64,000 nt of DNA from an uncultured Acidobacteriota bacterium (GTDB lineage Bacteria; Acidobacteriota; Terriglobia; Terriglobales; Acidobacteriaceae): contig CAWIZP010000010.1 of the NCBI GenBank assembly GCA_963840575.1, positions 137,485-201,484 on the forward strand, written 5' to 3'. Numbering within the stretch: position 1 is the first letter of the stretch; every line of letters starts with the position of its first letter. Both the position numbers and the translations under genes were made by a program. Below the pieces are notes generated by a model, which did not search any database, was not told the origin of the DNA, and saw only the letters and a list, made by a program, of their open reading frames with translations. This document shows, in pieces, positions 1-35,096 of this stretch.

Positions 1-1002
1 TTATTGGGATGCTGGGGATCGTTCCAAAATCCCAAAGTTTGCGACTACAAGTACGAAACCATGACGGAATGGGGCCGGGCCATGTATGTTACTCCGGGCG
101 TCGTGGTCGATGGCAAGCTCGTCACCACGGATCTCGTCGACATCAATCTCAACATGCGGATTTTGCTCGGTAGTTCCTACTACGATGACTGGAAGAACTC
201 CGAGACCTTTGTGAAGACGGATCCGCTGGGAAATCCAGTCGACAAGAATCACCCATGGAATCAGACCACGATACCTCGTCCGCAAAAGCGCGATTTCGGC
301 GGCAAGTACACTTGGGTCATGTCGCCGCGTTGGCTGGACAAACGGACGGGCGATCATCTCGCCCTCGACACCGGCGGGGGCCCGATTGCCCGGCTCTGGG
401 CAACAGCTCTCGCGGGCATCGTTGACATCGGCTACATCAAGGCCACGGGCCACAGCGTGAAGATGTACCTGCCGAAGACGGCATCCAAGCCCGAGGTTGA
501 ATTCGAATGGAAGATTCCGAAGTGGAGCAACGCCATCGAGCGCGACCGGGCGCGAACCTATTTCCAAGCCTACGCCGCTTCTGCCGCCCTCTACTTCGCC
601 GAGAAAGCACTGGCGGAATTGCACGCCGGGCGGACCAGAACCTGGACGGACTTCAAGGTTCCCGAAGAGGCCATCGGTTGCGGGTTCCACGAAGCAGTTC
701 GGGGTGTGCTCTCCCACCACGTGGTGATTCGCAAGGGCAAAATCGCAAACTACCATCCTTATCCTCCAACGCCTTGGAATGCCAATCCACGGGATATTTA
801 TGGCACTCCGGGACCGTACGAAGACGCAGTGCAGAATACGCCGATCTTTGAAGAGAACGGTCCGGAGAAATTCAAGGGCATCGACATCATGCGAGCCGTG
901 CGCAGCTTCGATCCTTGTTTACCGTGCGGCGTCCACATGTATCTGGGTAACGGCAAGGTGCTGGAGACGCGTCATTCTCCGATGTTTGGCCTTCAGCCCT
1001 GA
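1..1002 (+). CDS. hhyL: [NiFe]-hydrogenase large subunit, C-terminal ~333 codons (5' end upstream of window); probably high-affinity group 1h/5 (Hhy-type)
   Basis: Frame 1 is open from base 1. C-terminal Ni-Fe ligand motif SFDPCLPCGVH is followed by a 21-aa tail (MYLGNGKVLETRHSPMFGLQP) of the kind removed by the maturation protease. A hyp island follows. Confidence 0.9.
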   Translation, partial: LLGCWGSFQNPKVCDYKYETMTEWGRAMYVTPGVVVDGKLVTTDLVDINLNMRILLGSSYYDDWKNSETFVKTDPLGNPVDKNHPWNQTTIPRPQKRDFGGKYTWVMSPRWLDKRTGDHLALDTGGGPIARLWATALAGIVDIGYIKATGHSVKMYLPKTASKPEVEFEWKIPKWSNAIERDRARTYFQAYAASAALYFAEKALAELHAGRTRTWTDFKVPEEAIGCGFHEAVRGVLSHHVVIRKGKIANYHPYPPTPWNANPRDIYGTPGPYEDAVQNTPIFEENGPEKFKGIDIMRAVRSFDPCLPCGVHMYLGNGKVLETRHSPMFGLQP

Positions 1003-1020
1003 ATGCATATTGTGTTCACT

Positions 1021-1079
1021 TAGGAGTGAGGGCGGTGGCTTGCGGCGACTCTCACTCCTACTTTTTCGCTGATTTTTTT
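1021..1079 (+). terminator. stem-loop with T-rich tail just after the large-subunit stop (partial terminator or mRNA stabiliser)
   Basis: Perfect 10-bp inverted repeat TAGGAGTGAG (1021-1030) / CTCACTCCTA (1051-1060) with a 20-nt loop, then CTTTTTCGCTGATTTTTTT. Confidence 0.5.
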
Positions 1080-1128
1080 CATAGCCAAACAAGGTAATCA
1101 GCAAGAATCAATCTGGCGAAGGAGACTT

Positions 1129-1719
1129 GTGGCCGACGGCAAAGATCTTCGAGAAGACATGCAGCGGATCGGAGGATTGGTTCAGGAGATCGAATCCATC
1201 GGCGATCCCGCGGTGCGAGCTGCCGCGAAGAATCTGATGCAATTGCTCATGGATTTGCACGGAGCTGCTCTGGAGAAAACCCTCGACATTGTGGCCGACG
1301 CCGGAGAGCCGGGCATGACCATCATCGACCGACTCGGCCGCGATTCGCTGGTGAGCAGCGTCCTGATTTTGTATGGGCTTCATCCTGAGGATCTCGAAAC
1401 CAGAGTCGTAAAGGCGGTAGATCGCGTGAGGCCGCAACTGCGCAAACAAGGTTGTGAACTGGAGTTGCTCGCCGTGACTGATGGAGCCATTCGACTGCGG
1501 GTTGAAACTGGTTTTCATACCTGCGGTTCAACCGCCAAAACTGTCCAGGCTACGCTGGAAGGCGCGATGTACGACGCGGCGCCCGATCTGACTTCCCTGA
1601 CGATCGAAGGTTTTGAAGATAAGCCTTCATCCGGATTTGTGGCTTTAGACAAATTAATGGGAAACGCCGGACAATTCATCTCCTCGCCAGTTGCGTTAGA
1701 GCCGCAAGGCGGCGACTAG
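1129..1719 (+). CDS. NifU/Nfu C-terminal-domain-like hydrogenase accessory protein
   Basis: GTG start 5 nt after AAGGAG. The segment VRPQLRKQGCELELLAVTDGAIRLRVETGFHTCGSTAKTVQATLE resembles the Nfu domain, but the CxxC reads HTCGST. Located directly after hhyL. Confidence 0.65.
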   Translation: MADGKDLREDMQRIGGLVQEIESIGDPAVRAAAKNLMQLLMDLHGAALEKTLDIVADAGEPGMTIIDRLGRDSLVSSVLILYGLHPEDLETRVVKAVDRVRPQLRKQGCELELLAVTDGAIRLRVETGFHTCGSTAKTVQATLEGAMYDAAPDLTSLTIEGFEDKPSSGFVALDKLMGNAGQFISSPVALEPQGGD

Positions 1720-1749
1720 GAACGATCGAACACTTTGGGATTCTGAATT

Positions 1750-2424
1750 ATGAGTGCCGGGCAATTTACGGGATCTACCGATGGATTCGGAGCGCTTCGC
1801 CAGTTCGCACGGCGCGAGCGGCAGCTCGAACGTTGCGAGTTGTGCAGTCTGGGTCTGCGGTCTGATCACCCGCATTTGCTCGAATTGGCGCAGCGCAAGC
1901 TCATATGCACCTGTGAACCTTGTGCGATTCTATTCAGCGGCCAGGGCGTGAAGTTCAAGCGAGTGCCTCGGCGAGTTTTATCTCTTCCCCGCTTCAACCT
2001 CAGCGATGCAGAGTGGAACGGTCTGATGGTCCCAATCAACATGGCTTTCTTTTTCAGGAACAGCCTCGAGGAACGTACGGTTGCGATGTATCCCAGCCCC
2101 GCTGGCGCGACCGAATCCCTGTTGGATATGGAGTCCTGGAATGATATCGCCCAGCGCAACTTGGTGCTAAGCACAATGGAATCGGATGTAGAAGCGTTGT
2201 TGGTCAACCGTCTCGGATACTCCCGCGGATATTCCGCGCCGGAGTACTATCTGCTGCCGATCGATGAATGTTACAAACTCGTCGGGCTGATTCGGATGCA
2301 TTGGAAAGGCCTCTCCGGAGGAACGGAAGTGTGGCGGGAATTGGGCGAGTTCTTTACCGGCTTGAAAGCGAAATCAGTGGAGATCAAAGAGGAAGCCAGC
2401 GCTCGAGAGAAATCTGATGCCTGA
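1750..2424 (+). CDS. hydrogenase-cluster conserved protein of unknown function (Cys-rich N-terminus; DUF5947-like from memory, unverified)
   Basis: 224-aa ORF with CELCSL...CTCEPC cysteine pairs. Its 3' end overlaps the next gene by 8 nt (ATGCCTGA at 2417-2424). Confidence 0.6.
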   Translation: MSAGQFTGSTDGFGALRQFARRERQLERCELCSLGLRSDHPHLLELAQRKLICTCEPCAILFSGQGVKFKRVPRRVLSLPRFNLSDAEWNGLMVPINMAFFFRNSLEERTVAMYPSPAGATESLLDMESWNDIAQRNLVLSTMESDVEALLVNRLGYSRGYSAPEYYLLPIDECYKLVGLIRMHWKGLSGGTEVWRELGEFFTGLKAKSVEIKEEASAREKSDA

Positions 2425-3079
2425 TTTGAGCTTCCAGGTCGAGGCAGTCGAGGTAGTGGCCAATGCAGCCTCTCCGCTGCTGGCCTTCAAACTGCGCCTG
2501 ACTGACGCCAACACTCAGCAGATCATTCATACTGTGGCACTCCGCTGCCAGCTCCAGTTGGAAGTAACGCGCCGTAAATACACACTCCAAGACCAGGAAC
2601 GGTTGCTCGATCTGTTTGGCGAGCCCAGCCGCTGGGGCCAAACTTTGCGCAGTCTTTTGTGGGCCCATGCCAATCTCGTAGTTCCTTCATTCACCGGGAC
2701 GACTGTAGTCGATCTTCCCGTTCCCTGCACCTTCGACTTCAACGTGGCTGCTACGAAATACTTCGATGGTCTGACTGATGGTGATGTCCCCATCTGCCTG
2801 CAATTCAGCGGAACAGTTTTCTACGCGAACCCGGACACGCACCTGCAGGTTGCTCCGATTTCCTGGGACAAGGAAGCGCGCTTCAAACTTCCGGTAAAAG
2901 TTTGGCGCGACATGATGGAGTCGTACTATCCCAACAGCGCATGGCTCTGCCTGCACAAGGACACTTTTAACCGCTTATATCAGTACAAACTTCGGCACGG
3001 CATTCCCACGTGGGAAGAAGTGATCGAGCGCGTCGTGCCGGTGCAAGTTGATCCAGTCGAGGAGACGGTGACGCAATGA
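2417..3079 (+). CDS. hydrogenase-cluster conserved protein of unknown function (DUF6084-like from memory, unverified)
   Basis: 220-aa ORF, coupled to the upstream gene (ATGCCTGA) and to the downstream gene (ATGA at 3076-3079). Confidence 0.6.
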   Translation: MPDLSFQVEAVEVVANAASPLLAFKLRLTDANTQQIIHTVALRCQLQLEVTRRKYTLQDQERLLDLFGEPSRWGQTLRSLLWAHANLVVPSFTGTTVVDLPVPCTFDFNVAATKYFDGLTDGDVPICLQFSGTVFYANPDTHLQVAPISWDKEARFKLPVKVWRDMMESYYPNSAWLCLHKDTFNRLYQYKLRHGIPTWEEVIERVVPVQVDPVEETVTQ

Positions 3080-4140
3080 ATCTTGCGACCGTGGAGAAGA
3101 TCGCGAAAGCCGTGTTGTACGAGGGATATATGCTTTATCCCTACCGACCTTCGTCGGTGAAGAATCAGCAGCGCTGGAATTTCGGCGTACTCTGCCCGCG
3201 ATCCTACAGCGAGATGCAAAACGGTAGCGAAGCTTGGACGATGCAGACCGAGTGTCTGCTTGAGGCCAACTCGCTGACCGGGATTGAAGTCCGGGTCCGA
3301 TTTCTGCAACTGGTGGCGCGAACTATCGGCGAATTAAAGACGCCAGTAGCCGAACTGTTACAGGGTGAAACACCAGACTTTCAACGAGTAGAGAAGCTCT
3401 CGGTGAATGGTCGCGCCTACGAGCCGTGGCAGGAAGCAGTCGAGCGGGAAGTCGTGCTGCCAGTTTTGAATATTGAAGCGCTGCGCCATACCGGGTTAAA
3501 GCGACCCTTTATTTTTCTTGAGGGAAAAGAGTTTGAGCCCCTGCGCGAGTCCGGCGGAGGGATTGTGGGCGTTCTTGTTCGGGAACGAAACAACCTCCAG
3601 GGTGAAGTGGAGCTTACCGCGACCCGGCTCGACGATGGCATCTTCAAAATAGGCGTGCACATTCGGAACACAACTCCTTTTGAAGTCTCGGATAATACCG
3701 GTCGCGAAAGTGCGTTGTTGAACGCCCTCGTATCGACCCATACTATCCTCGGCGTTCAGGATGGCCGCTTCGTTTCTTCACTGGCTCCCGCTGATGAAAT
3801 GAAAGAATTTGTTGGAAGCTGCAAGAATGTTGGAACGTGGCCGGTTCTCGTTGGCGAAGAAGGCGATCGCGATACGTTGCTCTCTTCGCCGATCATCCTC
3901 TACGACTATCCGCAAATCGCTCCCGAGAGCGCTGGTGACCTCTTCGACGGCACCGAAATTGACGAGATTCTCTCCTTGCGAATCATGACGCTCACGGATG
4001 AAGAAAAACGCGAGATGAGCCAGTCGGACGAGCGCGCCCGTCAGATGTTGGAGCGCACTGAGGCTATGCCGGTCGAACATCTCATGAAGTTGCACGGAGT
4101 CTTGCGAGGGCTGCGTCCCCTGAGGGAGGAGATCCGATGA
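3076..4140 (+). CDS. hydrogenase-cluster conserved hypothetical protein
   Basis: 354-aa ORF with ATGA overlaps at both ends (3076 and 4137). No catalytic motif recognised. Confidence 0.6.
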   Translation: MNLATVEKIAKAVLYEGYMLYPYRPSSVKNQQRWNFGVLCPRSYSEMQNGSEAWTMQTECLLEANSLTGIEVRVRFLQLVARTIGELKTPVAELLQGETPDFQRVEKLSVNGRAYEPWQEAVEREVVLPVLNIEALRHTGLKRPFIFLEGKEFEPLRESGGGIVGVLVRERNNLQGEVELTATRLDDGIFKIGVHIRNTTPFEVSDNTGRESALLNALVSTHTILGVQDGRFVSSLAPADEMKEFVGSCKNVGTWPVLVGEEGDRDTLLSSPIILYDYPQIAPESAGDLFDGTEIDEILSLRIMTLTDEEKREMSQSDERARQMLERTEAMPVEHLMKLHGVLRGLRPLREEIR

Positions 4141-4988
4141 ACGAATGGGAATGGCAACTGGTCGAAGAAAAAACTCCCGTCGATCATCTGGAAATCTGTG
4201 GAGTCGAAGTGAGAACCGGAAGCCGGGTGCGCCTGCGCCCCCGTCCGGGAGGCGATGTGATGGACATCGCGCTGGCGGGACAGACCGCAACTATCGAATG
4301 CATTGAACAGGACTATGAAGGCAAGCAGCACGTTTGCGTGGTCCTGGATAACGATCCCGGAAAAGATCTTGGTCTTCTGCGCCAGCCAGGCCACCGCTTC
4401 TTCTTCGACGCCGAGGAAGTCGAGCCGCTATCTGGCGCCGAGATTGCAGAAATCTCAGCCCTGCCAAAGAAGACCATCCTCGTAGCTGGCATCGGCAACA
4501 TTTTTCTCGGCGATGATGCGTTTGGTGTGGAAGTGGTGCGCCGTTTAGCCGAACGAAAATTGCCGGATGCCGTGCGTGTGGCCGATTTTGGCATCCGCGG
4601 CTTCGATCTAGCTTATGCCCTGCAGGATGGCTACGAAACTACAATCCTGGTGGATGCATGTCCGCATGGCGAAGCACCGGGAACTCTTTATGTGATCGAA
4701 CCCGATTTGAAATCATTGGATAGTCCGGAAGCTCCGCCTGCCGTCATAGAAGCTCATGCGATGAATCCCGAAAGCGTGCTGCGCATGGCGCACGCGATGA
4801 ATATTGAAGTTAAGAATGTACTGCTCGTCGGTTGCGAACCGGAAACGCTTGGCGGTGAAGAGGGTCGGATGGGACTTAGCTCGCCGGTTCAGACGGCGGT
4901 GGCAGAAGCTGTGAAGCTGGTAGAGTCATTGATCCAAAAAGTGATGGGCAAGAGCGCGCCCGATTCAACTCCACATTCAACCCAGTGA
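4137..4988 (+). CDS. hydrogenase maturation endopeptidase (HupD/HyaD family) with ~110-aa N-terminal extension
   Basis: Core motif KKTILVAGIGNIFLGDDAFGVEVVRRL, then FGIRGFDLAYAL and VDAC. Preceded in the same ORF by an unrelated ~110-aa segment. Confidence 0.85.
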   Translation: MNEWEWQLVEEKTPVDHLEICGVEVRTGSRVRLRPRPGGDVMDIALAGQTATIECIEQDYEGKQHVCVVLDNDPGKDLGLLRQPGHRFFFDAEEVEPLSGAEIAEISALPKKTILVAGIGNIFLGDDAFGVEVVRRLAERKLPDAVRVADFGIRGFDLAYALQDGYETTILVDACPHGEAPGTLYVIEPDLKSLDSPEAPPAVIEAHAMNPESVLRMAHAMNIEVKNVLLVGCEPETLGGEEGRMGLSSPVQTAVAEAVKLVESLIQKVMGKSAPDSTPHSTQ

Positions 4989-5024
4989 ATATCTTGCGTT
5001 AGTTGCGTTAATAAGGAGACTGCC

Positions 5025-5228
5025 GTGGCAATCGAAAAGAATGGTAACGGACTTAGTGATAGGGACACGCTATTCATGTTGAGCGGCGTGGCGCTAATAG
5101 TGTTCGGGGCGGGATTAATTCTTTCCAATCCAATCGCGAAACGATATCTCAGCCAGATCGGGATCGGCGATTTGGCTCAGGCTGCATTGCCGGACTTAGA
5201 TCGCTATTTGAAACTGCGGGCGATGTAA
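5025..5228 (+). CDS. small membrane protein (67 aa) ending AALPDLDRYLKLRAM
   Basis: GTG start 7 nt after AAGGAG. One hydrophobic helix (LFMLSGVALIVFGAGLILS). The stop lies 2 nt before the next ATG. Confidence 0.6.
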   Translation: MAIEKNGNGLSDRDTLFMLSGVALIVFGAGLILSNPIAKRYLSQIGIGDLAQAALPDLDRYLKLRAM

Positions 5229-5230
5229 CG

Positions 5231-5851
5231 ATGAGCCCGCCCGTGCACATGGCAGAGAGTCAGGGGGATGGCTTGTCCACAGTAGGAATGCCGCACACGA
5301 CAGTTCGCTACATAATCGATGGCAAGAACAGCAGGTTCACAGTGCAGGCATTCGCTACGGGGCTGCTTTCGACATTCGCTCATAACCCGACCATTGCGAT
5401 TCGTGATTTCGAAGGCGAGATCTGTTTCAGTCCCGAGGCTGTGGAGCACAGTTGGTTGCACTTGATGATCCATTCGGCTTCGCTTACCGTCACCGACGAC
5501 GTTCGCGAGAAGGATCGGGCCGAGATCAATCGCGCGATGCAAGAACAAGTTCTGGAATCAGATTCGTTCCCCGAGATTCTTTACGAATCCTCCGGCCTGT
5601 CTGCGAATAAGATCGGAGAAGGACAATACTGGGGAACGATGAACGGCGAACTCGCGCTGCACGGAGTTACACGGAGTCAGCCAGTCTCCGTGCGCATCGC
5701 AGCCAACGAAGACGTACTCCGCGCAACGGGTGATTTTTCGGTGCGCCAGAGCGACTATGAAATTCGTCCGGTCACCGCGGTTGGCGGAACGATCAAGCTT
5801 AAGGATGAACTCAAGTTTTCGTTCGATATCTCCGCCCGCAGGCAGACGTGA
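5231..5851 (+). CDS. YceI-like polyisoprenoid-binding family protein
   Basis: SRFTVQAFATGLLSTFAHNP...SDSFPEILYES...GELALHGVTRSQPVSVRI...DYEIRP matches the YceI domain pattern. The true start may be an internal Met. Confidence 0.8.
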   Translation: MSPPVHMAESQGDGLSTVGMPHTTVRYIIDGKNSRFTVQAFATGLLSTFAHNPTIAIRDFEGEICFSPEAVEHSWLHLMIHSASLTVTDDVREKDRAEINRAMQEQVLESDSFPEILYESSGLSANKIGEGQYWGTMNGELALHGVTRSQPVSVRIAANEDVLRATGDFSVRQSDYEIRPVTAVGGTIKLKDELKFSFDISARRQT

Positions 5852-5916
5852 ACCGGCCGTACAGTTTTTTGAAGATGGATGACAGAGCAAATCATGACGT
5901 TGCCGAGGGATGCCAC

Positions 5917-6237
5917 ATGTGTCTAGCCATACCAGGGAAGATTGTTGAGATTTCCCATGAGAATAGGGATTCCGCGCTTGTCGAAGTAATCGGCGTGCGC
6001 CGCCGAATTGACCTCGGCCTGCTACACGACGATAAGCCAGTGGAAGGTGATTGGGTGCTGGTTCACGTCGGTTTCGCCATGAGTAAGATCAGCGAACAGG
6101 ATGCCAATGACCAGATGAACACTCTCAGAATGCTGGGAGAGATTGACGGAGCAATGCAGGAAGTCAAAGGATACGGATTGGAAGATGATGTCGAAATTGC
6201 TGGTTCCGATTCTAAGTACAAGGAACCGATCCAATGA
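5917..6237 (+). CDS. hypC: hydrogenase assembly chaperone HypC/HupF
   Basis: Canonical N-terminus MCLAIPGKIVEI at the ATG at 5917 (the track ORF begins upstream at 5848). ATGA overlap with hypD. Confidence 0.9.
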   Translation: MCLAIPGKIVEISHENRDSALVEVIGVRRRIDLGLLHDDKPVEGDWVLVHVGFAMSKISEQDANDQMNTLRMLGEIDGAMQEVKGYGLEDDVEIAGSDSKYKEPIQ

Positions 6238-7361
6238 GATTTGTCGATGAGTTCCGGCAACCCGAGCTGATTTCGAAAACCGCGGAGGAAATTCGTCGCC
6301 TGGCTCGCACTGGACGGCATTACCGCATGATGGAAGTCTGCGGTGGACATACTCACGCTATCTATCGTTTCGGACTGAAAGATATCCTTCCCGAAAATAT
6401 CGAATTGATTCACGGACCCGGTTGCCCTGTATGCGTGCTTCCGATGGGAAGAATCGACGACGGCCTCGCCATCGCCCACGAGCCGGATGTTATCTTCGCC
6501 GCCTTTGGCGATATGATGCGTGTTCCGGGTACTCAAGGCAGTCCGCTCGAGCACAAGGCGCGAGGCATGGACGTTCGCATCGTATATTCACCCTCCGATG
6601 CGTTAAAGTTGGCCCGGCTTAATCCCGAGAAGCACGTGTTGTTTTTCGCCATCGGATTCGAAACCACCGCGCCCTCCACGGCGCTCACGATGATGCGCGC
6701 CAAGGCCGAACACATCCGCAACTTCTCGGTCTTCTGCAACCACGTCACAATCATTCCCGCGATCCGCGCGATTCTGGATTCTCCCGACATGCGACTGGAC
6801 GCCTTTATCGGCCCCGGCCACGTTTCCACCGTCATCGGTTGCCGGCCTTATGAATGGATCGCGCAAAACGAACGCAAACCGATCGTCGTTTCCGGTTTCG
6901 AGCCCCTGGATATGCTGCAATCCATTGTTATGTTGTTGCGCCAGTTGAAAGCCGGTGAGGCCAAGGTTGAAAATCAATACAAGCGCGTTGTTCCCTGGGA
7001 GGGCAACCGGGCTGCGCTTCGCGCCATGGCTGAGGTTTTTGAGTTGCGCCCGTACTTCGAGTGGCGCGGTCTGGGCTTCATCTCCCAATCGGCACTTCGC
7101 ATCAACAACCAGTATGCCGAGTTCGATGCCGAACAGCGCTTCCAAGTGCCTGGCATTCGAGTGACCGATCCTAAAGCCGCGCAATGCGGAGAGGTGTTGA
7201 AGGGCGTGCTGAAACCGCATCAATGTAAACTTTTTGGACGCGAGTGCACGCCCGAGCATCCTATTGGCGCACTCATGGTATCGACGGAAGGATCATGCGC
7301 CGCGTATCACAGCTACGAGCACCGCAAGGCAGCAATGGTAAGTCTGAGCTCGATCGCCTGA
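6234..7361 (+). CDS. hypD: hydrogenase formation protein HypD
   Basis: MRFVDEFR N-terminus, with GPGCPVCV, GFETTAP and GPGHVS motifs. Confidence 0.95.
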   Translation: MRFVDEFRQPELISKTAEEIRRLARTGRHYRMMEVCGGHTHAIYRFGLKDILPENIELIHGPGCPVCVLPMGRIDDGLAIAHEPDVIFAAFGDMMRVPGTQGSPLEHKARGMDVRIVYSPSDALKLARLNPEKHVLFFAIGFETTAPSTALTMMRAKAEHIRNFSVFCNHVTIIPAIRAILDSPDMRLDAFIGPGHVSTVIGCRPYEWIAQNERKPIVVSGFEPLDMLQSIVMLLRQLKAGEAKVENQYKRVVPWEGNRAALRAMAEVFELRPYFEWRGLGFISQSALRINNQYAEFDAEQRFQVPGIRVTDPKAAQCGEVLKGVLKPHQCKLFGRECTPEHPIGALMVSTEGSCAAYHSYEHRKAAMVSLSSIA

Positions 7362-8416
7362 GCGCTCCGGCTGCCACGCTTGCCGCTTCGGCACCCGTCC
7401 GCTTCCGCGATCTGCAAATCGAGATGGCTCACGGAGCCGGAGGCAAAGCCAGCCGCAAGTTAGTCGAAGGCCTCTTTGCTCCTCTTCTTTTTGGTGCCGC
7501 ACCCGGCCCACTGAGCGACGCCGCGCACGTCGATATCAACGGAACCATCGTGGCAATCACTACTGATAGTTTTGTAGTTAAGCCTTTGAGTTTTCCGGGC
7601 GGGTCAATCGGCGAGCTTGCGGTGAACGGGACCGTGAATGACCTGGCGGTCTCGGGAGCAAAAGCGGAAGCTCTGGTAGTCACCTTTGTGCTGGAGGCCG
7701 GCTTACCCACTACAACCCTCGAAGCCGAAGTTCGCGCCATGGCGAAGGCGGCGCGGGACGCGGATGTCCGCATCGCCGCTGGCGATACCAAAGTGGTCGA
7801 ACACGGCAAAGCGGATCAGATGTATGTGACCACCACCGGCATCGGCCGTTTGATTCCTGGCGTGACTATCGATCCGCGCTCGGTGCGTGTTGGCGATAAG
7901 ATTCTGCTCTCGGGTCCCATCGGTGATCATGGCGTCACCATCTTGCTGGCGCGCGGTGAACTCGATCTCGAGGCCGACCTCCGTTCCGATACGCGATCCG
8001 TTTTTCCCTTGGTCGAAGCTCTCGTGAAGGCGGCCGGTCCTGGTATTCGTTGGATGCGCGATCCAACTCGAGGCGGCGCGGCTACGTCTCTCAACGAATT
8101 GGCACGCGACTGCGGGCTCGGAATGGTTCTTTTCGAGGATCAGATTCCGGTGCGAGATACGGTGCGCGGCGCCTGCGAGTTGCTCGGGCTCGATCCACTG
8201 CACATTGCCAATGAGGGACAGTTCCTCGCCATTGTTTCCCCCGAGTACGCCGATGCGGCGATCAATGCATTAAGTTTGGCGCCGGGCGGAAGCGAAGCGC
8301 AGGTGATCGGCGAGGTGCGCGAACAACCGGTCGGCACAGTACTCGTGACAACCCTGTACGGGGGCAGCCGAATCGTAGATATGCTCGTCGGCGACCCCTT
8401 GCCGCGAATTTGTTAG
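7295..8416 (+). CDS. hypE: hydrogenase expression/formation protein HypE (start uncertain: ATG 7295 or 7424)
   Basis: AHGAGGK near the N-terminus, an AIR-synthase-like body, and the C-terminal PRIC motif. Confidence 0.92.
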   Translation: MRRVSQLRAPQGSNGKSELDRLSAPAATLAASAPVRFRDLQIEMAHGAGGKASRKLVEGLFAPLLFGAAPGPLSDAAHVDINGTIVAITTDSFVVKPLSFPGGSIGELAVNGTVNDLAVSGAKAEALVVTFVLEAGLPTTTLEAEVRAMAKAARDADVRIAAGDTKVVEHGKADQMYVTTTGIGRLIPGVTIDPRSVRVGDKILLSGPIGDHGVTILLARGELDLEADLRSDTRSVFPLVEALVKAAGPGIRWMRDPTRGGAATSLNELARDCGLGMVLFEDQIPVRDTVRGACELLGLDPLHIANEGQFLAIVSPEYADAAINALSLAPGGSEAQVIGEVREQPVGTVLVTTLYGGSRIVDMLVGDPLPRIC

Positions 8417-8431
8417 ATCGCGATCTGACGA

Positions 8432-9667
8432 ATGAAGATGAAGATTAACGCCTCATATCCAAGCAGGACCTCCTCAGATCCGACCTCGGCGACTTGCAAT
8501 CTCGCAAGCCGTATCGAAGAGCGGCTGCTCGAGCGGAACCAATTATTCGAGCGCTTTTTCTCTCGCGAGGCGCCGCGACTGGCCGAGGCCTGCCGTGAGA
8601 TGTCTGAGCGTTTCCTGCGCGGCGGCCGCCTGCTCGCCTTCGGTCGCGGTCCTTATGCCACCGATGCGCAACACGTTTCCGTGGAGTTTGTGCATCCGGT
8701 AATCGTGGGCAAACGCGCTCTGCCGGCCCTCGATCTTTCCGTTCTCTTTCGACCGTGGCTCGAAGCGATCCTTCATCCCGAAGACATCGTGGTGGGATTC
8801 AGCCCGCCAGAAGGCGATCCTGAAGTCTGGGCGACTCTCCAGGAAGCGCACCTGAAAGACGCGATGACGTTCGCTTTGCCGGGTCTCGAAGGTTCTTACG
8901 CGGTTGGGGCAGCCACGCAAGATCCGTTCATGCATCAGGAAATGATCGAGATCCTGTATCACACTCTATGGGAAACAGTGCACGTGTTCTTCGAGCACCG
9001 CGAATTAGGCCATAATGTCGGCGCCTCTGGCTTTCTCTATCCATTTCTGGGAACGGAAAAACAGGGTACTGAGGACATTGCAGCCGAGGTTGCCGCTTCC
9101 ATCTTAATGAAGGCGCAAGATGATGCCAGGCTGCGCGCGCAAGTCGCGGGGGAAAAGGCGGAGCAAATCGCTAATAGTGCTCTTGCGATTCATGAACGCC
9201 TGCGCCGCGGCGGCAAACTCATAATCTTCGGCAATGGAGGCTCCGGTACCGATGCGAACGACTTTGCTATTGACTGCGTGCTTCCGCCGCCCGGGTATGA
9301 ATCCGTTCCGGCCGTATCGCTATCGCTCGAACCCGCGAACATTACAGCCGTCGCCAACGATATTGGTACCGACGCCATTTTCCTTCGTCAGTTGATCGCG
9401 CAAGCTCGTCCTGAAGATGTTGCCATTGGCATCTCTACCAGCGGAGGGTCGCGCAACATCATTGCGGCGCTCGAGGAAGCTAGCAAGCGCAGTCTGCTCA
9501 CTGTCGCGCTGCTGGGCTATGATGGTGGCGAGATCAAGCGCAAGCAACTCGCGGATTTTCCCATCGTTGTGAACTGCGACTATATCCCCCGTATTCAGGA
9601 GGTCCAGGCCTCCATCTACCACGTCATGCGCGAAGCGCTGGAGGTGCTGGCGCGTGGGCAAGCTTGA
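8432..9667 (+). CDS. tandem SIS-domain protein (two GmhA/phosphoheptose-isomerase-like halves)
   Basis: First half has LLAFGRGPYATDAQHVSVEF. Second half has LIIFGNGGSGTDANDFAIDC...ANDIG...GISTSGGSRNIIAALEEA. Both fit the SIS/GmhA pattern. Confidence 0.75.
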   Translation: MKMKINASYPSRTSSDPTSATCNLASRIEERLLERNQLFERFFSREAPRLAEACREMSERFLRGGRLLAFGRGPYATDAQHVSVEFVHPVIVGKRALPALDLSVLFRPWLEAILHPEDIVVGFSPPEGDPEVWATLQEAHLKDAMTFALPGLEGSYAVGAATQDPFMHQEMIEILYHTLWETVHVFFEHRELGHNVGASGFLYPFLGTEKQGTEDIAAEVAASILMKAQDDARLRAQVAGEKAEQIANSALAIHERLRRGGKLIIFGNGGSGTDANDFAIDCVLPPPGYESVPAVSLSLEPANITAVANDIGTDAIFLRQLIAQARPEDVAIGISTSGGSRNIIAALEEASKRSLLTVALLGYDGGEIKRKQLADFPIVVNCDYIPRIQEVQASIYHVMREALEVLARGQA

Positions 9668-9887
9668 ACTCTTTGGCACCGCCAGGTGTCCCCACACGGG
9701 CGAAATGCGCGACTGGCTGGAGTGGAAGCGTAGCGAGTTTGTCGAATATGACGTAGAAGCCGATCCCACGGCCCGCAGGCGCATGCGCGAAATCTCTGGC
9801 GGCCAGCGCACCGTGCCCATCCTGGTCGAGGACGGCAAGGTGATCCAAGTCGGTTGGCAGGGTCACGGTTGCCTGGTGGACGAGTAA
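9654..9887 (+). CDS. glutaredoxin/thioredoxin-fold small protein (CPHT active-site position)
   Basis: GTG start overlaps the SIS gene by 14 nt. LELFGTARCPHTGEMRDWL...RTVPILVEDGKV is a Grx-like layout. A second Cys lies near the C-terminus (GHGCLVDE). Confidence 0.7.
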   Translation: MGKLELFGTARCPHTGEMRDWLEWKRSEFVEYDVEADPTARRRMREISGGQRTVPILVEDGKVIQVGWQGHGCLVDE

Positions 9888-9934
9888 GCCACGTGGGCAC
9901 TGCCGTGATCGGCTTTGCCGGTACCCCGATAATC

Positions 9935-12250
9935 ATGGCCAGTGCCTGCTCCATTCGCGTTCGCGGCGTAGTACAAGGAGTGGGATTCCGTCCTTTCGTC
10001 TATCGCCTCGCCGCTGCACACAATCTGTCTGGATGGGTACTGAACGGCGAACAGGGAGTCGATATCCATCTCGAAGGCGCAAAGAGCGGGCTCGAAGCTT
10101 TTGTGCGTGATCTAAAAACGCAGCCTCCGCCTGCGGCTAAGATTGCGGAAATCGAGGTTTACACGGTCGAGCCGATCGGACTAACCGAATTCACAATTCG
10201 CAAAAGCAAGCATGGGAAACACCCCACGGTTCGCATCTCACCCGATTTGCCGGTATGCGATGATTGCCTGAAAGAACTCTTCGATCCAGCCGATGCACGC
10301 TATCAGTATCCCTACATCAACTGCACAAACTGCGGGCCGCGTTACAGCGTGATGCTGGACCTTCCTTACGACAGGCCGAACACCACCATGAAGCGGTGGC
10401 CGCTCGATGCCTTTTGCGAAAATGAATACGGCGACCCCGCCAACCGTCGCTTTCACGCGCAGCCGGTGGCGTGTCCGGTTTGCGGGCCAAATTATTATCT
10501 TCATCCGAAGAATGAAACTTCAGTCGGAACCGACGACAGTATCCGCCGTGCGGCTGAAATTCTTCAATTCGGCGGAATTCTCGCGGTGAAGGGACTCGGT
10601 GGCTATCATTTGGCTTGCGATGCGCGAAATCCCTTGTCGGTTGCGACTTTGCGAGATCGCAAATACCGCAAAGAAAAACCTTTCGCCTTGATGGCAAAAG
10701 ACATCAGTGTTGCACGAACCCTGGTGGATTTGTCATTGGACGCTGAGGCCCTTTTCACTTCTGTCGCTCGGCCCATAGTGCTGGCTCCGGCGAAAGTAGA
10801 ACTTCCGGAGGTCTCCCCGGATAACGGCGAACTCGGTGTGATGTTGCCTTACACGCCGTTGCAGCATCTGCTATTTGCAGCTGGAGCGCCCGATGTTCTC
10901 GTCATGACCAGCGCGAATCGTTCGAGTGAGCCGATCGCCTACGAAGACGACGATGCGTTACGGCGTCTCGCCGGAGTAGCGGACTCATTTCTGATCGGTC
11001 AGCGTTCGATCGCCCGGCGAGTGGACGACTCTGTAGTCCGCGCTGGAAGCTTCGGTCCGGTAATCCTTCGCCGTGCGCGCGGCTACGCGCCGGCAGCGGT
11101 TACGTCACTTCCGGTCAAGCATCCCATTCTCGCGCTGGGCGCGGATTTGAAAAATACGATTACGCTGGTAGTCGACGGCCAGGCCTTTGTCAGCCAGCAC
11201 ATCGGCGACCTGGATCACTACGAATCTCTGCGCGCCTTTCATGAGACCATTGACGATTTGGTTTCAATGTATGAAGTGAATTGGGATGATTTGCTTTTGG
11301 TGCATGATCTTCATCCGGAGTATCGCTCAACTGCCCACTCGGCGACGCGCCGCGCTGCGCAAACCGAAGCGGTGCAGCATCACCGCGCGCACGTGGCATC
11401 TGTGCTCGCTGAGCGCAGAGAGTGGACAAAGAAAGTTATCGGCGTAAGCTTCGACGGCACCGGATATGGAGACGACCGCTCGATCTGGGGCGGCGAAATC
11501 TTTGTTGGCAATCTTGAGGACGGTTTCGCACGCGCCGCACACCTGCGTCCCGCGGCGCTCGCGGGAGGCGACGCAGCGGCGCGCTATCCGGTGCAGGCAG
11601 CCGCTGGCTTTCTCATTCAAGTGGATGGCTTACCAGACGTGCTTGAGGCTCCCTTCAGTTTTCCAGAGCGGTACCGAAACGCGACGGAGCTGGTTCGGAA
11701 AGAGGTGCGCACGTTTGCCACGACCTCGATGGGGCGTCTCTTCGACGCTGCTGCCGCTTTGCTCGGATTCACGCGCGAGGCCACATTTGAGGGGCAGGCG
11801 GCCATGTGGTTGGAGCAACTCGCCCGCTGCGAGCCCGATGCCAAGGCATATTCCTTCCCCTTCATCGACAACCAGCTCGACTTTCGTCCGCTGCTGCAAT
11901 CGGTTGTTCTTGAGCGCGCACGTGGACGGAAAATCAGCGCAATAGCGCGCTCCTTTCAACGGGGGATCGCTGAGGGGTTGCGCGATGCTTTAACCGTTAT
12001 CTGTAGCAGCCAACAATTGGATACGATAGTTCTCTCTGGAGGAGTTTTTCAGAATGAATTACTCCTCGAAGATCTGCAATCTCTGCTGGCTGCGGAATCC
12101 CTGCAGGTCTGGACGAATCATGAAGTTCCCCCGAACGATGGAGGGATCAGCCTGGGACAGGCAGCCCTCGCGGCGTTCGGGCGCTTCGATCGGGATCTTG
12201 AAAATGGGCAGCACTCCCTCGAACCTGCGAGCGAGGTAACTCATGCATGA
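9935..12250 (+). CDS. hypF: carbamoyltransferase HypF
   Basis: Acylphosphatase-like IRVRGVVQGVGFRPFVYRLA, zinc-finger CDDC...CTNCGPRYS and CPVCGP, and the YrdC-like VKGLGGYHLACDA. The track ORF starts at 9854; ATG 9935 fits the domain start. Confidence 0.95.
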   Translation: MASACSIRVRGVVQGVGFRPFVYRLAAAHNLSGWVLNGEQGVDIHLEGAKSGLEAFVRDLKTQPPPAAKIAEIEVYTVEPIGLTEFTIRKSKHGKHPTVRISPDLPVCDDCLKELFDPADARYQYPYINCTNCGPRYSVMLDLPYDRPNTTMKRWPLDAFCENEYGDPANRRFHAQPVACPVCGPNYYLHPKNETSVGTDDSIRRAAEILQFGGILAVKGLGGYHLACDARNPLSVATLRDRKYRKEKPFALMAKDISVARTLVDLSLDAEALFTSVARPIVLAPAKVELPEVSPDNGELGVMLPYTPLQHLLFAAGAPDVLVMTSANRSSEPIAYEDDDALRRLAGVADSFLIGQRSIARRVDDSVVRAGSFGPVILRRARGYAPAAVTSLPVKHPILALGADLKNTITLVVDGQAFVSQHIGDLDHYESLRAFHETIDDLVSMYEVNWDDLLLVHDLHPEYRSTAHSATRRAAQTEAVQHHRAHVASVLAERREWTKKVIGVSFDGTGYGDDRSIWGGEIFVGNLEDGFARAAHLRPAALAGGDAAARYPVQAAAGFLIQVDGLPDVLEAPFSFPERYRNATELVRKEVRTFATTSMGRLFDAAAALLGFTREATFEGQAAMWLEQLARCEPDAKAYSFPFIDNQLDFRPLLQSVVLERARGRKISAIARSFQRGIAEGLRDALTVICSSQQLDTIVLSGGVFQNELLLEDLQSLLAAESLQVWTNHEVPPNDGGISLGQAALAAFGRFDRDLENGQHSLEPASEVTHA

Positions 12251-12605
12251 ACTTTCGATTGCAATGAGCATCGTGGAACTGGCAGAGGAAGAGGCCGCGC
12301 GCCGCGGCGTTCAAGTTGAAGCTGTGCACCTTAGACTCGGAGCCTTATCCGGCGTCGTGAAAGATGCATTGCTTTCCTGTTATGAAATGGTCTGTGAGGG
12401 CACGCCATTGGAGGGTTCGCGGCTGATTGTCGAAGATGTCGCCGTCGTAATTTTTTGCGTGACCTGTAAAGCACAGCGCCGGCTCAACTCATTGCAGTTA
12501 TTTTGCTGCCCGGAGTGTGGAACCCCTTCGGCCGAAGTGGTGCAAGGCAAGGAACTCGAAGTGGTTGCATTGGAGATAAAGGAATGCGCACCGAACCCCG
12601 TTTGA
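12243..12605 (+). CDS. hypA: hydrogenase nickel incorporation protein HypA
   Basis: MHELSIAMSIVE N-terminus and CVTC...CPEC zinc site. ATGCATGA overlap with hypF. Confidence 0.93.
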   Translation: MHELSIAMSIVELAEEEAARRGVQVEAVHLRLGALSGVVKDALLSCYEMVCEGTPLEGSRLIVEDVAVVIFCVTCKAQRRLNSLQLFCCPECGTPSAEVVQGKELEVVALEIKECAPNPV

Positions 12606-13267
12606 TTGAAGTTCGAAAAAACGTTCTGAAGCAGAATGACGCTATCGCCCGCGCACTGCGCGAGCGTTTCCACGCCGCTGGAGTTTTTGTGGTGAGTCTC
12701 GTCTCCAGCCCGGGCTCGGGGAAAACCGCATTTCTTGAGAAGACTCTCACTCTTCTTCGTCCAAACTATCGGGTAGCTGCGCTCGTGGGTGATCTTGCTA
12801 CCGAGAATGATGCGCAGCGTTTAGCGCGCAGCCAGGCTCCGGTCAGGCAAATCACCACCGGCACTCTCTGCCACCTCGAGGCTGCCATGGTCCAAACTGC
12901 GCTCGAAGGCTGGGACTTAAGTCAGTTGGATTTTCTCTTCGTCGAAAATGTGGGGAATCTGGTTTGTCCTTCGTCATATGACTTGGGCGAGGATCTTCGT
13001 CTCGTACTTATTTCGGTTACCGAGGGTGAGGACAAGCCGCTCAAGTATCCAACTATTTTCAATAGCGCCGACGTGGCAATCGTCAGCAAGATGGACTTGG
13101 CCGCCGCAGTTGAATTCAATTGGGAAACCGCATACAACAATATCCAGGCTGTGCGCCCGGGGATGAAGGTCTTTCAGCTTTCAGCAAAGACCGGAGAGGG
13201 AATGCAAACGTATTTGGGGTTTCTTGCAGCGCGACTAGCGGAGTTGCGCCAACCTGTCACCATTTAG
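12584..13267 (+). CDS. hypB: hydrogenase nickel incorporation GTPase HypB
   Basis: ATG 12584 is preceded by GGAGATAAAGGA. Walker A SSPGSGKTAF and the ENVGNLVCP motif are present. Confidence 0.93.
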   Translation: MRTEPRLIEVRKNVLKQNDAIARALRERFHAAGVFVVSLVSSPGSGKTAFLEKTLTLLRPNYRVAALVGDLATENDAQRLARSQAPVRQITTGTLCHLEAAMVQTALEGWDLSQLDFLFVENVGNLVCPSSYDLGEDLRLVLISVTEGEDKPLKYPTIFNSADVAIVSKMDLAAAVEFNWETAYNNIQAVRPGMKVFQLSAKTGEGMQTYLGFLAARLAELRQPVTI

Positions 13268-13292
13268 CTAGTTAATATCGCGCGCCTGGTAA

Positions 13293-14111
13293 ATGATCAG
13301 TTTTGTCTCCATCCTCGCGGTCGGATTTTTCCTTGGGATGCGCCACGCCACCGATCCCGATCATGTCATCGCGGTCACAACTATCGTCAGCAATCAGCGG
13401 AGCACTGTGGGGTCGGCTCTGATCGGCGCTTTCTGGGGATTGGGCCACACGGTCACTATTCTGGTCGTAGGCGCCGGAATTATTCTCTTCAATCTCGTGA
13501 TCCCGGTGAAGCTCGGTTTGAGCATGGAATTGTCCGTCGCCGGGATGCTGATCATCCTCGGGCTCATGAACATTGCCGGATTTCTGCATACCATGGCTGA
13601 ATCAATGCCGACCGAATCACTGGCGAGCGGCGGAGAAAAGTTCATCCACGCCCATCCTCATAGTCACGGCGACTACACGCATAATCATTCGCACGTTCAT
13701 CGGCATGAGGGTCACTCTCACTCAATCGATTCCCCGTCGTTGGGATGGATGGATCGCGCATTTGGTAGAACCGGGATGTATCAATACTTTCGGCCCCTGG
13801 TGGTGGGGATTGTTCATGGCCTCGCCGGCTCGGCGGCTGTGGCTTTGCTGGTCTTGAGCACAATCCGAAACGTTCACTGGGCGGTTGCGTATTTGCTGGT
13901 ATTCGGCGTGGGCACGATAGCGGGGATGATGCTAATCACCATGAGCATCGCTTCCGCATTCACAATGGTAGGCAAAGGTCGGAAGAAATTTTCCCGCCGG
14001 CTGGCATTAGCTTCGGGATTGCTTAGTCTTGGTTTCGGTATTTTCGTCGCTTACCAGATCTGCTTCGTGAACGGACTCTTCACTACGCATGCGCAATGGA
14101 TTCCGCATTAG
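13293..14111 (+). CDS. nickel/cobalt permease (NiCoT/UreH-like) with His-rich loop
   Basis: Signature RHATDPDHVIAV (HxxxxDH) and GLGHT. Multi-TM profile. Loop is HAHPHSHGDYTHNHSHVHRHEGHSHS. Directly follows hypB. Confidence 0.8.
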   Translation: MISFVSILAVGFFLGMRHATDPDHVIAVTTIVSNQRSTVGSALIGAFWGLGHTVTILVVGAGIILFNLVIPVKLGLSMELSVAGMLIILGLMNIAGFLHTMAESMPTESLASGGEKFIHAHPHSHGDYTHNHSHVHRHEGHSHSIDSPSLGWMDRAFGRTGMYQYFRPLVVGIVHGLAGSAAVALLVLSTIRNVHWAVAYLLVFGVGTIAGMMLITMSIASAFTMVGKGRKKFSRRLALASGLLSLGFGIFVAYQICFVNGLFTTHAQWIPH

Positions 14112-34022: not shown

Positions 34023-34097
34023 CCATCAGACAAATCGAAGGCTTCCTTTTGCATGGCCGCGACATCATAAATCCGACGATCTCCGAAGGAGTCCTCA

Positions 34098-34217
34098 ATG
34101 AAAGCATTGTCTGTGGTTACGAAAGTGGCGGGCGTGGCAGCCTTGGCATTCGCCGGCTTCGTTATTCTCGCTGCGCTGCCCGATCTGCGCCGTTACATCA
34201 GAATCAGTACTATGTAA
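34098..34217 (+). CDS. unannotated 39-codon small membrane protein ending AALPDLRRYIRISTM (paralog-like of 5025-5228)
   Basis: ATG lies 6 nt after AAGGAG. Translation is MKALSVVTKVAGVAALAFAGFVILAALPDLRRYIRISTM. Below the 60-aa cutoff of the ORF track. Confidence 0.55.
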   Translation: MKALSVVTKVAGVAALAFAGFVILAALPDLRRYIRISTM

Positions 34218-34265
34218 GAGCGCAAGCGGACACACGGAAATGTGCTCCGTCGTGTCTGGCAAGCA

Positions 34266-34299
34266 AGAAGGCCCGACCATGGCTGCATGACGGCCTTCT
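34266..34299. terminator. hairpin between the convergent sORF and the HTH gene
   Basis: AGAAGGCC (34266-34273) pairs with GGCCTTCT (34292-34299). 18-nt loop and no clear T-run. Confidence 0.35.
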
Positions 34300-34388
34300 C
34301 TAAGCGGCCGCGAGCTGGCGCCGTGTCCTCTAACTTCCCCGGCCAAATCCTCGAGGGTGCAGCCTTCCTTTGCCGTCGGACGATCGCC

Positions 34389-34640
34389 TTATCCGTTGCT
34401 AACGGCAATGCCAAGGTAGTTGCTCACCACGGTCTGCGACAGGCTCAGGGCGGTCGCGATCTGAGAGACCTGCTGACCCCTATTATAGAGTTGATAAACC
34501 TGCTGGGCCTCGGTCAATTCCACCGTATACGCAGATTTGTTCGTGGTTGGCTGTGGAGTTCGAGCGGCTCCCGAAATCGAAGAAGAGTTCGCGGCGGCAA
34601 CTGATGCGGTCGATAGCGAACTGGAGACGGAAATACTCAT
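34389..34640 (-). CDS. small HTH protein (sigma-70 region-4 / LuxR-like helix-turn-helix only)
   Basis: 83 aa. Ser/Ala-rich N-terminal half, then LTEAQQVYQLYNRGQQVSQIATALSLSQTVVSNYLG. RBS GAGGAAAAGGGG upstream. Confidence 0.55.
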   Translation of the reverse strand: MSISVSSSLSTASVAAANSSSISGAARTPQPTTNKSAYTVELTEAQQVYQLYNRGQQVSQIATALSLSQTVVSNYLGIAVSNG

Positions 34641-35096
34641 AAGACCCCTTTTCCTCTGACCTAAGGAAGGATCGACGGATCACAGGAACCCTTTAGGGAA
34701 TTGGCGCCAATCATTGGACAAACGTAATGAAACACTCCGCAATCGGAACACTCTCCTAAAAGGGAAGAGTCCGTTAGGAAACCGAAGCGCCTAGAGGAAC
34801 GAAAAGGAACATGCCGATAGCACCCCTAAACGTGTCAGCATGCGACCGCTCCCATTTTCGAAACGGAGACTCGAAAAGGTCGCCACCCTATGCTGAACGC
34901 CATCAGCCAGACGTGAGCCGATTTATATCCGTCGTTGCATCGTTTGTAAGTGAATCGCCGGAGCTCTGCCGGACCACGGCCCGCTGGACCCGGCCCAGGA
35001 GTTTGCTCTACATTGATCTGAGTCACAGACTAAAGATGCCTTCGCTCCAAATAGAATGCAGCGACCCATAACCAACCACTGACCACTTGCCAGTGC

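Follow-up and report, generated by a model that had tools for sequence, protein, structure and literature searches.

We analysed a small open reading frame (sORF) of 39 codons in the window, by which we mean the whole 64-kb stretch of contig CAWIZP010000010.1 from an uncultured Acidobacteriota bacterium. The sORF lies after glpK, and the order of genes around it is a divergent argR, a MIP-family channel and an FGGY-family kinase, corresponding to glpF-glpK adjoining the arg operon. The kinase, GlpK, has 505 residues, and its stop codon lies 75 nt before the sORF start. A second protein of the window, 67 residues long, carries a similar C-terminal tail and is encoded in a group 1h [NiFe]-hydrogenase cluster. 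The features of the two genes were as follows.

34098–34217, forward strand: the 39-codon DUF6893 micro-protein gene, stop included (PF21833 match, ratio of nonsynonymous to synonymous substitution rates (dN/dS) of ~0.10, homologues)
34086–34091, forward strand: Shine-Dalgarno sequence AAGGAG, with 6 nt between AAGGAG and the ATG
34040–34046, forward strand: −35-like box GGCTTCC, starting 18 nt past the glpK stop, part of a conserved bipartite motif
34063–34069, forward strand: −10-like box CATCATA (family CATCC[A/T]A), 16 nt past the −35-like box and ending 28 nt before the ATG
34125–34178, forward strand: predicted hydrophobic transmembrane (TM) helix, V10–L27 (AlphaFold2; mean Eisenberg hydrophobicity 0.86)
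34179–34214, forward strand: C-terminal tail PDLRRYIRISTM, predicted to form a Pro-capped, short basic amphipathic helix (hydrophobic moment 0.52)
5025–5228, forward strand: the 67-residue long-form paralogue with a GTG start, between the genes for a HycI-type protease and a YceI-like protein

Read from the sequence, the sORF starts at ATG 34098–34100 and stops at TAA 34215–34217. Its product is MKALSVVTKVAGVAALAFAGFVILAALPDLRRYIRISTM, and the frame ends in LPDLRRYIRISTM. The C-terminus of the 67-residue protein is LPDLDRYLKLRAM, closing with AALPDLDRYLKLRAM before the stop. A preliminary description of this DNA had reported an ATG 6 nt past AAGGAG that opens a 39-residue frame with a tail like that of the 67-residue protein, and the sequence confirmed this. 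When all six frames of the 64-kb window were searched for P-[DE]-h-x-[KR]-[YFW]-x(5-7)-stop, these two frames were the only matches.

The 39-residue product matched Pfam family PF21833 (DUF6893) at 38.3 bits (E = 1.4e-9), above the gathering cut-off of 24.6. Residues 9–39 aligned to model positions 2–32 of 32, reaching the last residue, and one hydrophobic helix in 39 residues fits the DUF6893 size class (~30–60 residues). In its full-length match, size, single helix and C-terminal match end, the product agrees with Pfam DUF6893, with no sequence difference. The 67-residue protein scored 24.4 bits against the same model (E = 2.9e-5; cut-off 24.6) over the last 14 model positions only. Many of its 80–99% identical homologues bear a precomputed PF21833 tag, and others do not. 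An exhaustive hidden Markov model (HMM) search of 1.84 billion representatives gave 227 clusters at 50% identity (E up to 1e-3), and for nearly all of the best 150 profile hits the match reached the last residue of the protein. A word-indexed profile search gave 1902 clusters at 90% identity, nearly all 33–60 residues long; among the clusters listed, nearly all were tagged PF21833, and some carried the Joint Genome Institute (JGI) name 'uncharacterized protein DUF6893'. The long form had 1472 homologue clusters at 90% identity. The exact 39-residue protein was present, with a DUF6893 tag, in a public gene-call collection, and a close homologue from a Candidatus Sulfotelmatobacter metagenome-assembled genome (MAG) was labelled hypothetical protein by NCBI. 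By the names of its closest hits, the window falls within Terriglobia (Acidobacteriota), close to Ca. Sulfotelmatobacter.

These data bear out the earlier suggestion of a genuine family of small proteins marked by the two tails, since both proteins match DUF6893. The tails of the form PD(I/L)xRYLR(I/M)R(S/A)M that the preliminary description tentatively ascribed to small actinobacterial proteins are most simply DUF6893 itself, but we saw no actinobacterial member. NCBIfam held no model for either protein, the PDB held no relative of the short or the long form, and tblastn against PLSDB plasmids (E up to 1) returned nothing for either. We found no mention of DUF6893 or PHG071 in the searched literature. 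The sORF is almost certainly a genuine DUF6893 gene. DUF6893 is a catalogued family whose function is uncharacterised; as an annotation, the sORF is ordinary and of low novelty.

To collect short forms, we scanned species-representative genomes with [RK]RYI[RK][IM]S[TM]M and kept 80 loci from 203 hits, nearly all of them in Terriglobia MAGs. Every parsable locus held an open reading frame (ORF) of 33–43 residues ending at the common motif, and nearly all had an AGGAG/GGAGG-type site 5–9 nt before the start. In 13 glpK-linked orthologues, dN/dS was 0.10 over the last 28 codons, with 0.19 in the TM part versus 0.02 in the tail. Differences by codon position (297/276/943) fell mostly on third positions. 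Outside the search pattern, G20 and D29 were invariant in the 80-locus set, and L16 and Y/F21 were nearly so. Distant members from the unbiased HMM search retained LPD[ILV][KR]RY[IL][KR]IS[ST]M at the extreme C-terminus. Peat and permafrost metatranscriptome contigs from several runs covered the orthologous sORFs of two loci (L015 and L037) at 99–100% identity. Lack of conservation together with a lack of translation evidence had been named beforehand as the outcome that would speak against the gene; we observed purifying selection at dN/dS ~0.1 and transcription at the two orthologous loci.

AlphaFold2, run on a 26-sequence alignment, predicted a helix at residues 2–25, a break at residue 26 and a second helix at 27–38 (predicted local distance difference test (pLDDT) 95). 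The short form would thus consist of a short basic N-terminus and an 18-residue TM helix with a Gly/Leu packing face, then a break ahead of Pro28 and a 12-residue basic amphipathic helix at the membrane surface. The conserved face of the TM helix is formed by G12-L16-G20-L24, followed by an aromatic residue at position 21. The last residue of the tail is an invariant Met with a free carboxylate. We considered the -S-T-M end as a PDZ ligand and rejected it, as R occupies position −2 in the long form.

The long form has two copies of the tail motif. NPIA(K/R)RYL stands directly past the TM helix (residues 35–42) and LPDLDRYL at the end (residues 55–62), so that P-x3-R-Y-L motifs occupy residues 36–42 and 56–62; both RYL triplets were invariant in 20 homologues. 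AlphaFold2 placed helices at residues 12–34, 36–45 and 48–66 (pLDDT 69). Both proteins had been described as a single helix followed by the terminal motif, but in the 67-residue form ~20 residues intervene, starting with the second P-x3-R-Y-L. The long form differs from the window sORF in its second, internal motif, its acidic N-terminus and its match to PF21833 by the tail only. It resembles a short form whose tail has been duplicated, and this doubling points to P-x3-R-Y-(L/I) as the working unit. The net charge of the long form is −1 at the N-terminus and +2 in the C-terminal part, which would favour a cytoplasmic tail.

The hydrogenase cluster occupies window positions 1–14000. The C-terminal part of its large subunit scored 672 bits against HofG of the Cupriavidus necator 'actinobacterial-type' enzyme (5AA5). 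The gene order is large subunit, NifU-like, DUF5947, DUF6084, a 354-residue unknown, HycI-type protease and the 67-residue protein, followed by YceI-like, HypC, HypD, HypE, SIS-domain, HypF, HypA, HypB and NicO-like. The long form holds the equivalent position in the cluster of another genome. The short form of the window lies 29 kb from the cluster; it is not encoded in the group 1h (Hhy) cluster beside the maturation protease.

We clustered the flanking ORFs of the 80 loci, named the clusters by Pfam, and obtained the following neighbourhood classes (arrowheads give gene direction).

Class A, 13 loci and the window: glpF>, glpK>, sORF>
Class B, about 17 loci: sORF>, WXXGXW-repeat gene>, often just behind a glycine-zipper membrane protein gene
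Class C, about 12 loci: AI-2E transporter<, glycine-zipper<, (BON<), sORF>, with the BON-domain gene in half
Class D, about 18 loci: kynureninase-like<, sORF>, amino-acid permease<, TPR-GAF-GGDEF>
Class E, 6 loci: in or beside a group 1h hydrogenase cluster
Other, 14 loci: various

Stand-alone short copies occupy at least five conserved neighbourhoods, and in Terriglobia most short copies are stand-alone. The tails of class D are KDVRRYIRISTM. In class E, the short form of L009 and L011 stands directly behind the HycI-type protease gene with no long form present, and is 84% and 71% identical to that of the window, respectively. L018 and L026 have protease, long form, YceI and short form, in that order; in L065 and L069 the short form is tail-to-tail with the long form. 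In the latter four loci the two forms lie within ~1 kb of each other. Hydrogenase clusters thus accounted for 6 of the 80 loci, compared to ~0.5 expected at random by a rough estimate (30 kb of a 5-Mb genome), or ~12-fold. The in-cluster proteins (the 67-residue form and the short forms of L009, L011, L018 and L026) share the terminal motif LPDLxRY(I/L)(K/R)..M-COOH with the window sORF, and these short forms also share its TM helix and its promoter-like motif. The window sORF differs from them in its position, 29 kb off the cluster and after glpK.

A DUF6893 gene was present in each of the group 1h clusters that we saw (the window, L009, L011, L018, L026, L065, L069, L170 and L171). Beyond the short forms, we observed a YceI-like gene after the long form in the clusters of the window (5231–5851), L018 (7312–7890), L170 and L171. 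The short form of L018 is right behind this gene, and L009 has neither YceI nor the long form. No publication joining group 1h, hydrogenase and YceI was found in the searched literature. Among class B loci, contig CAWFUK010000096.1 (L014, L016) carries the glycine-zipper/sORF/WXXGXW module twice, in identical and inverted copies ~10.6 kb apart.

In a maximum-likelihood tree, the classes tracked sequence subfamilies, with 13 label changes compared to ~50 when labels were shuffled. The protein of the window was nearest to that of L008 (class A), with the in-cluster proteins of L009 and L011 next; the main glpK-linked clade, which is well supported, did not include it. The tree was based on 40 columns, and its deep branches are poorly resolved.

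Upstream of the short forms we observed a conserved bipartite motif, G(G/A)C(T/A)(A/T)C(C/T)-N16-CATCC(A/T)A, with an unconserved spacer; in nearly all stand-alone copies it reads GGCT(T/A)CC-N16-CATCC(A/T)A or close to it. The pattern G[GA]C[TA][TA]C[CT]-N15-17-CATC[CAT][TA]A had one match in the 64-kb window, at 34040–34069. The −10-like box was present 11–58 nt ahead of the start codon in 68 of 80 distinct upstream regions. When these 68 regions were anchored on the −10-like box only, the −35 box columns reached G 82%, C 88% and C 96%. A strict pattern gave 55 hits in 1.27 Mb of loci, compared to 1–4 in shuffled sequence; 51 of the 55 lay immediately ahead of a recorded sORF start, and one more was just upstream of the match in L079, where the ORF finder had called no ORF. 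The motif was common to short forms of all classes, in-cluster ones included.

The fixed spacing, the lack of conservation between the boxes and their placement with respect to the start codon suggest a promoter-type element. The motif is best read as a putative promoter for an alternative sigma factor or a site for a dedicated regulator; we claim no sigma class. Its presence at all locations suggests that the short form is controlled alike after glpK, among envelope genes and in the hydrogenase cluster. In classes C and D the sORF is divergent from the gene upstream, and in class D it is also convergent with the gene downstream, so it cannot share their transcripts. The short form appears to be a separately controlled unit. 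In L037, RNA contigs start at 7949, 7964 and 7971, which is 3–25 nt past the box at 7940–7946, in sparse and unstranded data. We also considered pairing of the −35-like box with the Shine-Dalgarno sequence as an RNA switch. This was rejected by inspection: ~4 bp are pairable, and the box varies among classes.

A relaxed position-weight scan gave a few conserved extra motif hits, and their meaning is ambiguous. Three of the few strong matches that are not upstream of DUF6893 (ACGACAACCGTCG...ACATCCAAG; L080:13667–13699, L082:13658–13690, L064:15301–15333) stop 5 nt short of the ATG that opens a conserved ORF of ~270–300 residues, with a metallophosphoesterase-like gene next; these sites could belong to an additional regulon member or reflect a leaderless transcript. 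Three class B loci have a conserved second motif-like site (GAGCCTTCC...GCATCCAAA; L013:8866–8898, L017:11919–11951, L019:11884–11916) ~3.8 kb downstream of the sORF, with no convincing ORF starting just after it.

We also retrieved loci via GlpK instead of the sORF. Five syntenic relatives (L088–L092) with GlpK 72–82% identical had no DUF6893 frame after glpK, and argR and/or glpF was seen in four of the five. Comparison of L090 (3988–4070) with L032, L024 and L025 revealed a ~190-nt indel that takes out the −10-like box, the sORF and the sequence between them. L090 retains a remnant of the −35-like box, GGGCTTCGG, which suggests that the sORF was deleted there in a clean loss of the micro-gene. 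A functional link between glpK and the sORF was rejected on this patchy linkage and the five syntenic relatives without the sORF; the place beside glpK is a historical accident and incidental. In mycobacteria, the glycerol-sensing GylR affects huc expression (PMC13098282), which is a coincidence only with respect to the position of the sORF next to glpK. On a related 4.6-Mb contig, 500 kb separate the hydrogenase cluster from the short form linked to glpK, so the 29-kb distance in the window carries no weight.

The region just 3′ of the glpK-linked sORF is variable (window 34218–35096; L001:6804–8015; L003:6552–7961; L169:5982–7423). In three close relatives it holds, downstream of the sORF, a tyrosine integrase gene, a transposase gene of the DDE type, or an integrase together with an HTH_17 excisionase-like gene, which points to a hot spot for insertions just 3′ of the sORF. 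In the window, an 83-residue gene on the reverse strand (34389–34640) is convergent with the sORF and has a weak HTH_40 match (E = 6.5e-4, below cut-off). A related genome has an 83-residue gene at the equivalent place (L168, L169), and the likeness is one of position and length only. One further feature lies between the sORF and this gene.

34266–34299, forward strand: a possible terminator-like hairpin, AGAAGGCC...GGCCUUCU, weak and without a U-tract (fold z-score −1.75, not significant)

A similar GGCCG...CGGCC hairpin is also present 3′ of the sORF in L008 and L010. The intrinsic-terminator scan listed nothing at 34266–34299, and together with the sigma-70 promoter scan it gave nothing useful around the sORF. 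Rfam gave no match there.

We propose that the sORF encodes a separately controlled membrane docking micro-protein with the Hhy hydrogenase as a plausible client, a reading that we hold to be evenly balanced. Its parts carry different weight. We lean slightly towards the view that the short form of DUF6893 acts as a docking or accessory subunit, and name Hhy as its client more tentatively. The TM helix would anchor the protein in the membrane, and the invariant tail would provide a docking site at the membrane surface for a partner protein or complex, much as small accessory subunits do in respiratory and transport complexes. The likeliest client would be the Hhy system encoded 29 kb upstream. 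According to a published report, Hhy associates with the membrane although no transmembrane regions are predicted for it (bioRxiv 10.1101/769216). Hhy is favoured as the client by this association without a TM subunit, by the paralogue in the Hhy cluster, by in-cluster short forms that stand in place of the long form or alongside it, and by the nearest relatives of the window copy.

Several observations weigh against this proposal. The enrichment near hydrogenase genes that the preliminary description had asked about is real (6 of 80 loci) but partial, as 74 of the 80 short-form loci lie away from hydrogenase genes. Adjacency in the six class E loci could just mark an origin by tandem duplication. 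The cluster of the window already has its own long-form copy, and the partner of the short form is putative. In the sequences examined, no copy of the motif was seen ahead of hydrogenase genes. The motif was spanned by RNA fragments X25 (L015, 7900–8212) and X27 (L037, 7754–8024), which indicates that read-through or DNA carry-over occurs; its promoter function is a suggestion drawn from conservation. We did not find the locus of the window itself in any RNA run searched. Membrane topology is predicted rather than observed: the short form has a net charge of ~+2 at either end, which makes the positive-inside rule uninformative, and the N-termini of some distant members are long and charged. 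Because the retrieval pattern imposed the last nine residues, their conservation among the 80 loci is in part circular. The dN/dS of the TM part, the conservation of G20, D29, L16 and Y/F21, and the exhaustive profile search are free of this bias.

A credible though somewhat weaker alternative is that the short forms are general stress or stationary-phase membrane micro-proteins that act on another partner or on the bilayer, the cluster copies being a specialised offshoot. Most loci lie beside other genes (WXXGXW at ~17, AI-2E/glycine-zipper at ~12, kynureninase-like/permease at ~18), and MscS and ferritin/Dps-like genes occur near some of them. The motif is found in all classes and was not seen at hydrogenase genes, and the neighbourhood classes follow subfamilies, as the 13 label changes indicate. 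However, the 'stress' character of these neighbours comes from domain names only. The window copy groups with in-cluster short forms and not with other classes, the short form takes the place of the long form in L009 and L011, and the ~12-fold enrichment at hydrogenase clusters is relative to a rough expectation; these points argue for a link to the hydrogenase.

A bolder version of the docking proposal strikes us as unlikely. The short DUF6893 genes of Terriglobia would be the core of a small dedicated regulon under an undescribed alternative sigma factor or regulator that recognises the bipartite motif, and the product would tether Hhy, and possibly other starvation-phase enzymes, to the membrane. 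The RY..M-COOH tail would do the holding, the stand-alone copy would be the working anchor, and the 67-residue form would be a tail-duplicated specialist.

Type I toxins and arrest or leader peptides are small, with a hydrophobic N-terminal part and a charged or conserved C-terminal part like the sORF, but they do not fit its conservation depth, its neighbourhoods and its lack of a common downstream gene. We consider it very improbable that the sORF encodes a type I toxin-like hydrophobic peptide of the Hok/TisB/Fst style, which would damage the membrane when expressed. Its size and its single hydrophobic helix with a charged tail fit such a peptide, as do the integrase and transposase genes just downstream in some relatives. 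Against this stand strong purifying selection over deep divergence, the invariant 12-residue tail, stable synteny within lineages, and a paralogue embedded in the hydrogenase operon. The Shine-Dalgarno site is strong, with no predicted sequestering structure, and no antisense element was found (no Rfam match and no opposite-strand promoter-like site).

Even less probable is a regulatory leader or ribosome-arrest peptide of the SecM/MifM/TnaC style, whose C-terminus would act in the ribosome tunnel on a downstream gene. Conservation is strongest in the last ~12 residues, up to the stop codon, and the hydrophobic N-terminal segment is like that of force-sensing arrest peptides. This reading fails because the neighbourhood classes have no downstream gene in common. 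The next gene is convergent in class D and in the window (the 83-residue gene); in class A it is variable or convergent, with an integrase or transposase in relatives. The long form has the motif twice, once internally, and the TM face is conserved too. A chance open frame in the 3′ region of glpK, which the very short length and the lack of direct expression evidence for the copy of the window might suggest, is effectively refuted by the match to DUF6893, by dN/dS of 0.1 and by hundreds of homologues in which the start, the stop and the Shine-Dalgarno site are conserved.

Small accessory subunits such as CydX, KdpF and AcrZ have 30–50 residues and one TM helix, bind a larger membrane complex, and are encoded in or beside the operon of their partner, without an invariant extreme C-terminus. 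The docking micro-protein that we propose is similar in size and also has one helix, but its gene stands alone with its own control motif, and there is no homology. By functional analogy only, the sORF product may be compared with HucM of the group 2a hydrogenase Huc. In both cases the question is how a cytosolic, O2-tolerant, high-affinity hydrogenase stays at the membrane and gains access to quinone (PMC10017518). HucM is a large scaffold protein according to that paper, whereas the sORF product is a 39-residue peptide; we saw no sequence relationship between the two, though no search aimed at one was made, and tethering by DUF6893 is putative.

DUF6893 is the sole predicted membrane element that travels with group 1h clusters, which makes it an obvious candidate tether. 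Much of the atmospheric H2 taken up by soil is consumed by group 1h hydrogenases. Our data add that DUF6893 is not confined to hydrogenase clusters and includes a stand-alone short subfamily in Terriglobia. The control motif common to stand-alone and in-cluster short copies offers a handle on the timing of expression and on a putative regulator. The functional unit would be a short P-x3-R-Y-(L/I) tail that ends in Met and is doubled in the long form. These findings sharpen the question of how the hydrogenases that consume atmospheric H2 meet the membrane.

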